Source: Octopus vulgaris (Eukaryota). Taken from it: a stretch of 64,000 bases of DNA. The DNA lies in contig OX597827.1 of NCBI GenBank assembly GCA_951406725.2, forward strand, positions 33,914,001-33,978,000, written 5' to 3'. Positions 9,679-31,495 of this stretch are shown one piece after another; position 1 is the first letter of the stretch, and each line of letters starts with the position of its first letter. Made by a program: the position numbers and the translations under genes. The notes beneath the pieces are model-generated. The model did not search any database. It saw only the letters and a program-made list of their open reading frames with translations, and was not told where the DNA came from.

Positions 9679-9729
9679 ATGGCACTTCATAGATTGTGTT
9701 TAATGGCGATTTTGTTGATCACTGTATTG
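9679..9729 (+). CDS. Gene A exon 1: signal peptide MALHRLCLMAILLITVL
   Basis: AAAATGG start, hydrophobic 17 aa, donor G|GTAAGT in phase 0; paralog at 42835. Confidence 0.8.
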
Positions 9730-10509
9730 GTAAGTTTAAGCAAAAATTGTTATATTTCATGTTTGCTCGATTGGTTCTTACGAATTTTTTGTGGTAGAAG
9801 GTGATTTGATTTTAAAATCTTATGTTTTGCTAAACTATATGACTTTCTACTCCTATTCACTGAACACGTAATTAAATTACCTCTCTCTTTCTCATATATA
9901 TATATATATATATATATATGTGTGTGTGTGTGTGTGTGTGTGTGTGTGTGTGTGTGTGTGTGTGTGTGTGTGTGTGTGTGTGTGTGTGTGTGTGTGTGTG
10001 TGTGTGTGTGTGCGTGTGTGCGTGCGTGTGTGTGTGTGCATGTGTGCGTGTGTGTGTGTGCATGTGTGCGTGTGTGTGTGTATGTGTGTATGTGAGTGTA
10101 TGTGTGTGCATGTGCGTTTATATATATATATATATATATATAATAGAAATATTAAAATTACTAAGTCTCTATAAAAGAGATTACGACAGCGTTTACTGGA
10201 AATTAATTGTTATCGCCATATTAATATGGCATTCTTATAATATAAGAATAATCGCTGCTGCTGTTATAAGGTTATAATGGATACAGATCGTGTATCAATA
10301 GCTATCTTAAGGCGGTGGCCTCATGGAGCTGACCAGCGGCAGCGATTATTCTTATATTATAAGAATGCCATATTAATATGGCGATAACAATTAATATATA
10401 TATATATATATATATATATATATATATATATATATATATATATATATATATGTATGTATGTATGGTATGAAATTGTATGTATATATATATATATATATAT
10501 ATATATATA

Positions 10510-11782
10510 TCAGGTCAGCCCATAAGTTTTGTCCGAATTTTCAATAAAGAAAAGAAGCGATCAAATGTTATATTTAATTGAAATTTAATCATCAATGTAC
10601 TTTCCTTGATTATCTCTTACTTCCTTCCATCTATTTACAAGCTTTTTAATCCCATCAATGTAAAACTATTTTGGTTTCAAAGCGAAGAACTCAGAAATAT
10701 CAGTTTCGACCTCCTTCTGGCTTGCGAAAGTTATGTCTCCCAAACGATTCTGTAAACTACGAAACAAATGGTAGTTTGAAGCAGCAAGGTCGGGAGAATA
10801 AGATGGATGAAGAATTTTTTCTCAACCAAGCTCTTCGATCTTCTTTGATGTGATGGGGTCAAACATTGTCCTTATAAAAACATCACCCCTTTTCGATTCC
10901 CTAAAGCGGGTATTTTTTTCTTCAAAGCTTGGCTCAAATGCTCTAATTGGTGACAGTAGACTTGAGCATTGATTGTTGCATTAGGTGGCAACAATTCAAA
11001 GTGAATTACTCCTTTGCAATCCCACCAGATAGAGAGAAGAACCTTTTTCTCGTGAAGTTCCCTTCTCGGTTATGGTTGAGCTTTTTACCAAGCCACTGTT
11101 TACGACGTTTAACATTTCGATAGAAGGTCCATTTTTCGTCACCAGTCACAAGTCTATCAAAAAAGGGTGAAATGAGTTCGCGAGAATGGAGAGAAGAGCA
11201 GATGTCAACTCAGGATTTGCGGTTGCATTCGGACAATTCACGAGGCTTCCGTTTTCCAAGTTTGGGAAACTTTCCAAATTGTTGAAGATGACGATGAACA
11301 GTTGTATGGCTTGAGCTAAGCTTTATTGCCAATTCTTCAACTAATAACGCAGGATTTTCTTCCAGTAATGCCTCAAGGAGCTTATCATCAAACTCAACTG
11401 GACGTCCTGTTCGATCTTCATCTTTAAGGCCGAAATCTCCACTTCTGAATTTTGCAAACCATCTTCTGCAAGTTCTTTCATTCGAGCATTCTTTCCCATA
11501 AACTGAGTGTATGTTTCGAGTCGCTTCGACTGAAGAGTTTCCTTTTTTGTGCTCATAAAGCATTATGTACCTTAAATGCTCTTTGGATACTTCCATGTTA
11601 GAAAAGGTTTTAATCAAAGAAATTTTCTTTCTATTATTCTGTAAAATAATATTTAATGAGTTTAAATGTACACAAATGCATAAAAGTAATTTTTAATTCC
11701 ATTAGACATTCTAAAATTCTATTACATTTCATTCAATTTAAAAAAAGAACTAAAATCGGACAGAACTTATGGGATGACCGGA
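10510..11782 (-). mobile_element. Near full-length decayed mariner (DD34D) transposon
   Basis: TIRs TCAGGTCAGCCCATAAGTTTTGTCCGA / TCGGACAGAACTTATGGGATGACCGGA with TA flanks. HTH region MEVSKEHLRYIMLYE..RWFAKFRSGDF; stops present. Confidence 0.92.
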
Positions 11783-12179
11783 TACATCAGCTAGGGGTCT
11801 CTCAAACCCCGTGGTTTTACTACGCTCCCTGACACCAACCCAGGGTATTTCTGCATTCCCACGCTTAGATGGTTTGTCATCATATATGCTAGTTAAGCCA
11901 TAGCTAGGACCCTGGTAGGTGCTACTACTCCGTGATAGAATACACTCCTCAAAACTTTGGAACTTCCAAACCAGAGTCCCGCTATCGGATACTCTGATTT
12001 AAAACCTGCGGTTTCACATGATTACTGTTCATCTCGCTTCAGCCTGTCACTGGGTACTAATCACAGAAACTCAGATCGTAGTACACCAGTTTTTCAAGCG
12101 TTCATCACTACAGTTCAATGACGTACAGATATCTTTTTATGGTGATCTCATTTGTCAATCAATCTACTGAAAGTCCTAT

Positions 12180-12910
12180 GATAATGGAAGAGTGACGCGC
12201 CGAACTAATCAATTGAAAGCGCATCATAAGTTACAACTTTCGCCCGTTATGTATGTTTGAAACCACGCAGATCTGAAACGGGACTGAATAGTCATCTGAA
12301 AGGTTATGGATGGCAGGTCAGAAATACCATTGACAATAAGGAAGCACCTCTGTAAAGATGGAGCAATCACCATACATACACACACATGTAGACAAGCACA
12401 TTCACATACATACACACACACACGCACACAGGGCGTGTGACGGGTAAATTGTCGGCATTTCATATTTTTTATTTCGTGCATGCGCATTGTTTTTGATTTT
12501 GTCGACTACACAGTATAGTAGGGCCAGTTGGGCATCGTCTGTGAGAAAAACAACACCATGACGCAATTCACTCTGCCAGAATTTTGGAAACGACATGCTG
12601 TACTCAGGGACTTGGGAGTATCTGAGCTACTTATCAGGCAGGTAGTGCATGAAGACATTCGGTATTCCTCGTACAAAATGAGAAAGTGCTAATTTTTATC
12701 TCAAGCTATCAAAGATAAGAAAAGAGACCGCGCAACGAAGTTTTTCAACAAACTCAAGCATTCCCTCCAACCGAACATGATTTGGTTTTTCTCAGACAAG
12801 AGAAATCTCTTCCAGATCAGATGGTGAACACACAGAACAACCGTTGATTTGCCGTGTCCCTAAAACATGTACCAAGAGTGATAAAAATCAAACATCTAGT
12901 CAACATCATG
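12180..12910 (+). mobile_element. Tc1/mariner-superfamily transposase remnant, interrupted
   Basis: IRQVVHEDIRYSSYKMRK..FFNKLKH..IWFFSD..NTQNNR, with stops and frameshift. Confidence 0.6.
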
Positions 12911-13156
12911 AATGCGAAAGAAATAGTTAAATAACCGTAAACCTACTTTTGGGCCACGCTATATATATATATATATATATATATATATATATATATATAT
13001 ATATATATATATATATATATACATATACATATATACATATACATATATATATATGCATACATACATATATACACATATATACACAAGGTACGCATAAAAA
13101 TGCGTCTAATGACGTAATGCAATAGGCATATACGTTGTGCTCGTGTTGGTTTGTAA

Positions 13157-29149: not shown

Positions 29150-29455
29150 ACTCATTTACTTGTTTCAGTCATTTGACTGCGGCCATGCTGGAGCACCACC
29201 TTTAGTCGAGCTAATCGACCCCAAGACTTATTCTTTGTAAGCCTAGTACTTATTCTATCGGTCTCTTTTGCCGAATCGATAAGTTACGGGGACACAAACA
29301 CACCAGCATCGGTTGTCAAGCGATGTTCGGGGAACAAACACAGACACACACACGCACACACACATATATACGTATATACGACGGTTTTTTTGCAGTTTCC
29401 GTCTACCAAATCCACTCACAAGGCTTTGGTAGGCCCGAGGCTATAGTAGAAGACG
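29150..29455 (-). mobile_element. SINE (family of 18880), 5'-truncated
   Basis: Shares TGTTTCAGTCATTTGACTGCGGCCATGCTGGAGCACC with other copies. Confidence 0.75.
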
Positions 29456-29890
29456 ATGTAATTCTCCTTTTTAATATATTTGTCTTGGAGTGTAGCTGTA
29501 ACTTCAACCTCGTATATGATATACGCCTGGTCAAGTGGACATGCTTCAGGGTCTCGACAGTTACAACTGTGGGTGGTCTCTTAGTGATGAGTTATAATGT
29601 TCTTCATATTGGGGTTGAATGATATTTAATTGAGCGTATGTTAAAAATTTTTCCTGTATTTATTAGGATTTATTGGAAAGTGTTTATCTAAAAGAAACAG
29701 GAACTTCTTGTCTATGTTACTCTTAACATTAAGGGAGAAAAGATTAAGGAAACATCTAAAAAATTAACTTCAGACAGATTAATTAATAGTAACAGTTATT
29801 TTAAGGCCTAATTGACAAATAGTGTCAATCAAATTTTTCCTAAATCTATCAAGAGTTTGACCGTCCCAGCCATGAGATAGTCCAAACCCA

Positions 29891-29993
29891 TTGTCTCGAA
29901 CATGTGACACAGTAGCCTGCCCCCGAGGAGTTGAAAATTCTTAAGGATAAGTTAAAAGATCTTGCATTAGAAAAAAATTGTCCAAAACAATTC
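29891..29993 (+). pseudogene. Degenerate partial copy of gene A terminal exon
   Basis: ATGTGACACAG.AGCC..GAGGAGTTG.AAATTCTTAAGGATAA..TGTCCAAAAC.ATTC matches ~31205-31315; has an in-frame TAG and deletions. Confidence 0.7.
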
Positions 29994-31007
29994 TTATTTT
30001 CTCACTGACCAGCGTCCTTGTTTTAAAAAAAATATATAATGCATCAACAGAGCCTGAAAGATTGCTTTAAGGTACATGGCATATCTTATAAATATGCCTG
30101 TTCAAGTATCATAAAAACATGAAACTATTTGTGCTCTTTCGGTTGTGTATTAAATATATATGTATATATATATATATATATATATATATATATATATATA
30201 TATATATATATATATATATATATATATATATAAATTAGAAAAATGACCTTTTATCAATTCAATAATGAAAGATTAAATTATACCATTTAGAAAAATTACA
30301 TCTTATAGAAAGATTAAATAAAAGATAAAACATATAACAATGATTAAGTTGCAAAATAATAAATAAAACGTATACCATCTAGAAAGGAATATATTTTAAA
30401 ACTTATTAATAATATTAAATATTATATATATATATATATATATATATATATATATATATAATCTTTAATATTATTAATAAGTTTTAAAATATATTCCTTT
30501 CTAGATGGTATACGTTTATATATATATATATATAGCGGGAAGCCACCATGTGGACACCCGTATGCTAGAAATAGATCCGCTACGGTCTCACCACCAAGAA
30601 ATGTTCTCAAGAATAATTTAGCAAAACAACCAAAACGTAATCGAGCAAGACAAAAGAAAAAAGTAATAAAAATATGAATTATTCGTATACATGTTTCACT
30701 ATCAACGAATTACGCAATTTTACGTAACTTACGTAATTGTCAGTAGATCATCGGTACGACCGTCCAAGGTGAATATAATTATATATATATATATATATAT
30801 ATATATATATATATATATATATATATATATATATATATATCAATCAATTTAATATATAACCGAAAAATATATATATATATATATATATATATATATATAT
30901 ATCTGAATTCAAGATTTGTAAACAGTTTGAAAATGTCTGTTCTCTGTGTTTCAATTTCAAGTTGTTTTCGGAGTTTGTATATCAAAGTCTGTTTTCTTCC
31001 TTTGTAG

Positions 31008-31495
31008 GGACATTTGACACTGGGAGTTTGATACATATGAGTGGTGGAGATGCACCCAACATTACGTTTGATGACATTCCTTCTGATGATGACGTAAATA
31101 AAACCAGTACTACAATAAATACCAGTGGTGCAACTGAAACAAGCACTACACCGCAAACCAGTGGCACAACAAAAACTCCTGCAACACCCATGTGCTCTTG
31201 TGCTTGTGAAGATGTGACACAGCAGCCCCCCACTGAGGAGGAGTTGGAAATTCTTAAGGATAACTTAAAAAAAGAGCTTGCCGTGGATAAAAAGAAACTG
31301 TCCAAAACGATTCGAGCCAAAACCAGTGCCCCGGACGAACGACAATCGGCTCAAGGTATAGGATTTATTGGTGTGGTACTTCTATCTGCTCTGCCTATCT
31401 TCATCTTCATTATAGACCTCCCACAACTCTATGCGGACCTGAAGACTTTTTACACGAATGTTTCTAGTTTGTGTTCCAATAGGACTCCAAGCTAG
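31008..31495 (+). CDS. Gene A exon 5: Ser/Thr stalk, CSCAC, coiled coil, TM helix, short tail, stop
   Basis: TTCCTTTGTAG| acceptor in phase 1. ..MCSCACED..LEILKDNLKKELAVDKKKLSKTIRAKTSAPDERQSAQGIGFIGVVLLSALPIFIFIIDL..*. Confidence 0.88.

Follow-up and report, generated by a model that had tools for sequence, protein, structure and literature searches.

The 64,000-nucleotide (nt) window analyzed here spans positions 33,914,001 to 33,978,000 of the forward strand of contig OX597827.1 in the Octopus vulgaris assembly GCA_951406725.2. Coordinates below are those of the window, except where positions on the contig are given in Mb or as eight-digit numbers. In its left half lies a gene, here called gene A, for a predicted single-pass membrane glycoprotein with PAN/apple-type domains in its ectodomain (the "heads") and a conserved C-terminal region (the "anchor"). 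Part of a paralog (B) follows in the same window, and a further paralog (C) lies on the same contig. The features of gene A are as follows:

9679-9729, plus strand: exon 1 (51 nt), with the ATG and the greater part of the predicted signal peptide; donor in phase 0
16408-16432, plus strand: exon 2, a 25-nt micro-exon encoding the last residues of the predicted signal peptide; phase 0 to phase 1
21718-21963, plus strand: exon 3, predicted PAN/apple-fold domain with six cysteines (53, 57, 63, 65, 75, 83); phase 1-1
24366-24605, plus strand: exon 4, probable second PAN-type domain with seven cysteines, an odd number; phase 1-1
31008-31192, plus strand: exon 5, upstream part, with the linker and a stalk rich in Thr and Ser
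31193-31417, plus strand: exon 5, anchor, with CxCxC (250-254), heptad coil (~267-280), SxxDxRxS (294-301), and the membrane helix up to Asp324
31418-31495, plus strand: exon 5, cytoplasmic tail of 25 residues including YADL and YTNV, and the stop codon

The original prediction for this DNA had proposed a hidden five-exon gene for a type I membrane glycoprotein, and its exon coordinates were recovered unchanged: all introns have GT-AG ends in phases 0,1,1,1, and the exons sum to 1050 nt (349 amino acids [aa]) with no internal stops. The proposed topology also holds, with hydropathy maxima at residues 1-19 (2.39) and 305-323 (2.83). The last exon encodes 161 aa, in which a stalk of 49% serine plus threonine (residues 216-250) leads to CSCAC (250-254); Asp324 is followed by a 25-aa tail. 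The count of N-x-S/T sequons needs a small correction: 13 rather than 12 precede the membrane helix in the ~300 ectodomain residues, one of them being created by the exon 2/3 junction.

Public records, in which the XP_ and CAI entries are predicted models and not reads, contain each of the four junctions. Junctions 1 and 2 are letter-for-letter identical in CAI9732728.1/CAI9732729.1, junction 3 has the same position in XP_014785847.1, and junction 4 is present in XP_036364683.1. Because all four are present in public predicted models, gene A is not hidden, and that word was an overstatement; however, the public models are fragmentary or chimeric with paralog B, and the full five-exon protein was absent from every public record retrieved. 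XP_014785847.1 (LOC106880439; 83% over 242 aa) and XP_036364683.1 (LOC118765932; 99% over 187 aa) are uncharacterized ortholog fragments, and the equally uncharacterized CAI9732728.1/CAI9732729.1 match exons 1 and 2 together with the beginning of exon 3 and a portion of exon 5. In O. bimaculoides, the ortholog joins the end of exon 3 to exons 4 and 5 as in the gene A model. No characterized protein matching gene A was found among these searches, in agreement with the earlier statement that it could not be matched to a named gene.

Contigs from runs X1 and X18 match the exon 5 region (31056-31518 and 31012-31467) with no mismatches. An X5 contig ends at the exon 4 donor (24606) and has 9 leftover letters; of the X17 contigs at this donor one ends there and another continues into the intron. 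The joint of exons 3 and 4 was not found in contigs placed on 21690-24890, and exon 3 is uncovered in X1, X3, and X17; this result is evidence neither way, and the same applies to 30915-31680, where X17 and X7 gave no contig and no loose end was seen at the exon 5 acceptor. Among the contigs placed on these two stretches, which take in only junction 3 in full, none crossed a modeled junction. The predicted splicing of gene A thus draws on conservation and the public predicted models. The five-exon model is real, and it goes beyond chance because two paralogs keep the same exon types, phases, and open frames.

Exon 3 is predicted to adopt the PAN/apple fold. Its structural model (predicted local distance difference test score [pLDDT], 72.9; 10-row alignment) superimposed on the PAN domain of plasminogen (4a5t) with a Z score (Z) of 8.3 and a root mean square deviation of 2.8 over 74 aligned residues. 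Twenty-one chains reached a Z of ≥5, and unrelated rows stayed at ≤3.8. Next after plasminogen came HGF, a plant receptor, leech anti-platelet protein, MIC4, Wsc1, and SML-2, and to judge from their titles the top 16 rows are all PAN-fold proteins. The top Foldseek rows were likewise all PAN proteins, none with an E value (E) below 0.001, and a profile built from the ten PAN exons in gene A and paralogs B and C ranked PAN proteins first among PDB sequences (E, 0.002-0.008). Sequence identity in the fold matches to the PAN lectins MIC4 and SML-2 was 14-15%. The paralogous copies of exon 3 matched PAN_1 at an E of 2.4e-4 (3 of 10 rows), with whole paralog proteins scoring 15-17 bits. The ten PAN exons, of both the exon 3 and the exon 4 type, have five cysteines in common without exception, and the spacing C-x3-C-x5-C...C is found in 10 of 10; this is the four-cysteine PAN core, a pattern also visible in the PDB alignments. 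The ends of exons 3 and 4 have no cysteine close by; the additional ones are internal (the pair C65/C83 in exon 3).

The PAN/apple assignment of the original prediction holds by fold for exon 3, with weak fold support for exon 4. Exon 4 is probably also a PAN domain, as suggested by its cysteine spacing and by an ortholog that has only the exon 4 domain and the anchor and bears the UniRef name "Apple domain-containing." An exon 4 alignment including this whole ortholog gave no PAN match in the PDB, and its weak matches to ATP synthase c fell on the membrane helix only. Gene A lacks the second cysteine of the CC found in exon 4 of its paralogs and has extra cysteines at 145 and 167. One exon 4 cysteine of gene A may be unpaired. 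PrkA and DUF6272, which also appeared in the Pfam search, scored below the cutoff and were rejected.

The C-terminal part of the protein proved to belong to a much larger family. The last 75-90 residues of the final exon recur at at least 15 places in the 2.8-Gb genome, 8 of them on this contig within 1.7 Mb (33.94-35.59 Mb). A profile built from octopus sequences only (14 of the 15 places) retrieved 2,682 representatives of 50%-identity clusters at an E of ≤0.001 among 1.84 billion. When 20 of the best 150 clusters were looked up, 18 had a named organism, and all of these were molluscs (bivalves, gastropods, and cephalopods). An atlas search placed the anchor only in unnamed clusters, with Mollusca as the commonest taxon, and in no named cluster. 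No Pfam family was common to 85 aligned anchor rows (at most two rows per family), and the anchor had no match among PDB sequences (best E, 0.24). Literature searches, mostly of open-access text, turned up neither the gene nor the anchor, and none of five identifiers. The earlier description of the protein as lineage specific thus applies to the PAN heads, which match only Octopus proteins (5 of 6,522 candidates in a word-seeded search), but not to the CSCAC-coil-membrane part, a mollusc-wide module with thousands of members.

Several features mark the anchor, and gene A has all of them: CxCxC, heptad coil, SxxDxRxS, and an Asp 22 residues on. The Ser, Asp, and Arg of the motif and the Asp at the membrane end are invariant in the 85 aligned rows. 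Among the 150 best matches, 132 contain SxxDxRxS, followed in 131 of the 132 by Asp at exactly 22 residues; upstream of the motif, CxC occurs in 121 and CxCxC in 89. Hydrophobic residues occupy positions -27, -23, -20, and -16 (fractions, 0.82-1.0), a 4-3-4 heptad spacing, and the 20 residues ahead of the membrane helix carry a mean net charge of +3.6. The tails are basic and short (median, 21.5 aa in 128 tails, 4 long ones omitted), and a glycosylphosphatidylinositol signal was set aside in view of this tail after the helix. YxxL/I occurs in 27 of 132 tails, and a hemi-immunoreceptor tyrosine-based activation motif (hemITAM) general to the family was accordingly rejected; the YADL of gene A has Cys instead in paralog B. 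In matrilins, which are secreted, a CxC cluster directly ahead of a heptad coil forms the oligomerization domain. The anchor shares this order, which suggests interchain disulfides, but gene A has a short coil that continues into a membrane helix, and no Pfam matrilin match was found in the 85 rows.

The anchor is combined with many kinds of head. Of 76 members scanned against Pfam (69 representatives of ≥230 aa and 7 other matches), 35 had a head above the cutoff, of 11 kinds: C-type lectin (10), IgGFc-binding (8), F5/8C (5), PAN (4), PLAT (4), ephrin-receptor-like (3), WSC (2), EGF (2), kringle (1), TSP1 (1), and V-set (1). In a tree of the anchor (52 rows, 96 columns; one octopus anchor locus, L013, and the representatives without a Pfam head were left out), the Octopus PAN trio and its orthologs group at 100/99, separate from other PAN-headed members, and the deep forks are unresolved. 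Between 34.23 and 35.24 Mb the contig has five more anchor exons, and the closest public proteins of three of these have long heads without a Pfam family, as does a further public protein of the anchor family (P0007). Several family records (P0020, P0025, P0030, P0038, and others) have two anchor matches per chain, probably because tandem paralogs were merged in the gene model, as in CAI9732728.1.

Paralogs B and C share with gene A the 51-nt first exon, a micro-exon with conserved flanks (31 nt in B, 25 nt in C), phase-1 exons, and GT-AG ends. The following parts of B lie in the window:

42835-42885, plus strand: exon 1 of paralog B (51 nt)
55191-55221, plus strand: micro-exon 2 (31 nt)
56668-56916 and 57323-57553, plus strand: first PAN exon pair
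61333-61581 and 61989-62228, plus strand: second PAN exon pair; the third pair and the anchor exon lie past the window

The anchor exon of B is 12 kb past the window end. With three PAN exon pairs, B has an open frame of 677 aa; C, on the minus strand at 35.585-35.601 Mb, has one of 1206 aa, and neither contains an internal stop. PAN domains number two in A, six in B, and two in C, and the last exons measure 488, 494, and 3056 nt, respectively. The last exon of C (35585491-35588546) is mostly a Thr/Ser repeat stalk. Within B, the PAN pairs are 95-99% identical in amino acid sequence and their introns 98-99% identical, which indicates that they were duplicated recently; the triple pair would be a recent intragenic amplification, or possibly an effect of assembly or haplotype. 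The O. sinensis model has a different number of PAN pairs. Phase-1 exons allow such duplication of heads. A genome search with the PAN heads returned only the three paralogs and one weak match at an E of 0.03.

Heads and anchor have changed at different rates. The ratio of nonsynonymous to synonymous divergence (dN/dS) was computed by the Nei-Gojobori method with Jukes-Cantor correction, without correction for base bias, and with bootstrap 95% ranges. Between A and B it was 1.01 (0.66-1.67) for the heads and 0.24 (0.11-0.45) for the anchor, at similar dS in the two regions (0.29 and 0.32). In the two comparisons with C, it was 0.48 and 0.54 for the heads, as opposed to 0.19 and 0.22 for the anchor. 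A stable base with a changing head is the pattern of recognition families.

Gene A resembles PAN- or lectin-headed single-pass proteins already known and belongs to a large, unnamed mollusc anchor family. Proteins of the PAN/apple family PF00024 (plasminogen/HGF N domain, Toxoplasma MIC4, Sarcocystis SML-2, leech anti-platelet protein, AMA1) are like exon 3 in fold and in the C-x3-C-x5-C...C core. Gene A differs from them in lying below Pfam detection, in having C65/C83 and no terminal cysteine pair, and in being joined to the mollusc anchor. AMA1 is a type I protein with tandem PAN folds, and its chains match the exon 3 model at a Z of 4.5-5.0. In the apple subtype, which has six cysteines, a third disulfide joins the first and last strands of the domain; exons 3 and 4 of gene A, with no cysteines near their ends, fall outside it. 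PAN-mucin-ZP proteins carry a ZP domain before the membrane helix, unlike gene A, whose last exon has no Pfam ZP match. Closer in layout are MANEC proteins such as HAI-1 and yeast Wsc1, which share a PAN-fold head, a single membrane pass, and a short tail. Wsc1, whose head matches the exon 3 model at a Z of 6.6, also has a Ser/Thr stalk, and MANSC1 and LRP11 are further MANEC proteins; we know of no CxCxC-coil anchor in any MANEC protein or in Wsc1. One report describes MANEC as a PAN subclass with an eight-cysteine head (PMC12940448), and the heads of gene A, with six and seven cysteines, do not belong to it.

Oyster CgCLec-TM1 and CgCLec-HTM are described as recognition receptors that cross the membrane once and combine a lectin head with a short tail bearing a tyrosine motif (PMC13027682, PMC12842671). 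C-type lectin is also the commonest head on the anchor family, but gene A has PAN heads instead, and neither exon 3 nor exon 4 matches Lectin_C in Pfam. As to the tyrosine motif of the hemITAM lectin receptors, gene A has YADL in its tail, paralog B has lost YxxL, and the motif occurs in the minority of family tails given above. The words "coiled" and "stalk" occur nowhere in these two bivalve C-type lectin papers (PMC12842671, PMC13027682).

Taken as a whole, we lean modestly toward gene A being a surface recognition or adhesion receptor, with PAN heads held on a stalk over a conserved mollusc anchor that likely clusters chains and docks onto a membrane partner. A role in recognition or adhesion had been proposed before, and we infer the same. 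As judged from hydropathy and sequons, the predicted glycoprotein would be secreted to the cell surface in a single-pass orientation. There the PAN pair would likely bind an outside glycan or protein, lifted off the membrane by the Thr/Ser stalk. By analogy with matrilin, CxCxC and the coil may join chains into disulfide-locked oligomers, while the invariant Asp/Arg and the membrane-edge Asp, which flank a helix of fixed length, may contact a partner or form a fixed bundle. Given a short tail without conserved tyrosines, signaling, if any, is more likely to proceed through a partner than through the tail. The direct basis for this reading is the exon model, the predicted PAN fold of exon 3, the conservation and fixed spacing of the anchor, its reuse under many heads, and the faster change of the heads.

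Several results weigh against it. Pfam matched exons 3 and 4 of gene A to no family, neither reaching the PF00024 cutoff of 21.4 bits. The exon 4 model is poor (pLDDT, 59.4), and its best rows, though PAN-type, reached only a Z of ≤3.6 and a Foldseek E of 0.97. Copies of exons 3 and 4 gave an uninformative profile comparison (probability, 0.1%) and a BLASTP identity of 26% (E, 0.002). In the anchor family, 41 of the 76 members have no head above the cutoff, and the coil is no longer than about two heptads. For the heads, the comparisons A-C and B-C give a dN/dS of about 0.5 rather than 1, and the A-B ratio near 1 fits relaxed constraint as well. As to the gene model, CAI9732728.1/CAI9732729.1 omit most of both PAN exons and continue into paralog B, XP_036364681.1 fuses exon 3 of A with exon 4 of B, and an X17 contig (depth, 7.8; short side, 24 letters) joins a GT donor at 23319 in intron 3 to the exon 4 acceptor at 24366.

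Three other explanations were weighed. The protein could be a structural component of glycocalyx, mucus, or matrix attachment, its glycosylated heads and stalk serving as a spacer or coat and the heads drifting without a specific ligand. The 13 sequons in ~300 ectodomain residues, the 3056-nt Thr/Ser repeat exon of paralog C, and a head dN/dS near 1, which fits weak constraint, are all in keeping with a coat, as is the presence among the exon 3 fold matches of leech PAN proteins (1i8n; Z, 7.4) that bind collagen. Drift of this sort is, however, difficult to reconcile with five cysteines invariant in ten PAN exons, with frames that stay open at a dS of 0.3-0.7, or with the constraint on the A-C and B-C heads, and relatives carry recognized binding heads; we regard a coat as unlikely. 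Alternatively, the anchor might be a device for processing and release, in which a convertase or sheddase cuts the basic run before SxxDxRxS and sets the heads free as a soluble disulfide-linked oligomer. CxCxC and the coil do lie on the head side of that site, the net charge of +3.6 precedes the helix, and a basic cluster is present in 111 of 132 members by a loose pattern; yet gene A has IRAK and some paralogs IATK there, with no clear dibasic site, and cleavage would leave the invariant inner-edge Asp at its fixed distance unexplained, which makes release distinctly unlikely. That the five-exon form is itself minor, with the locus yielding mostly read-through or truncated forms and exons of A occurring in mixed transcripts with B, seems very unlikely to us. 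The chimeric models, others that begin in exon 4, and the contig joint from 23319 point that way. Both B and C, however, possess a separate first exon, micro-exon, and anchor exon; the exon joints of the O. bimaculoides ortholog are as modeled; and the chimeric model departs from exon 3 after the PAN start and from exon 5 ahead of the membrane helix, which suggests prediction error.

Taken singly, gene A is of modest weight, as it supplies a corrected model for an octopus surface protein that public records annotate wrongly. The larger point is the family: an anchor without a Pfam or PDB entry marks 2,682 clusters, and it carries head types that mollusc immunologists study singly as lectins. 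Cephalopods have few C-type lectins, according to one report (PMC10140915), and for this reason the octopus genes that join the anchor to other heads (at least 15, including 8 in a 1.7-Mb region of this contig) are candidates for surface recognition. On a bolder and improbable extension, the anchor would be a standard membrane socket of molluscs, in which the outer Asp/Arg and the inner-edge Asp plug thousands of different recognition heads, shuffled as exons (lectin, PAN, PLAT, discoidin, WSC, kringle, and others), into a single common partner for signaling or uptake, and the octopus cluster would be a diversifying branch. If the heads share no partner, the anchor would be an ordinary oligomerizing stalk, of interest mainly for annotation.

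Other sequences were noted in the window. Upstream of the donor at 23319, the interval 22974-23319 begins with an ATG and a hydrophobic run and reads into exon 4 in an open frame, so that it may belong to an isoform with a single PAN domain. A decayed, indel-bearing copy of much of exon 5 lies at 29701-30148, ~0.9 kb upstream of the true exon 5 (best stretch, 76% over 106 nt). Open reading frame fragments occur at 11210-11692, 36561-37488, 49425-50240, 14704-15651, 3051-7227, and 53528-54070; they look like mariner transposase, a GIY-YIG retroelement, and remnants of long interspersed nuclear elements.

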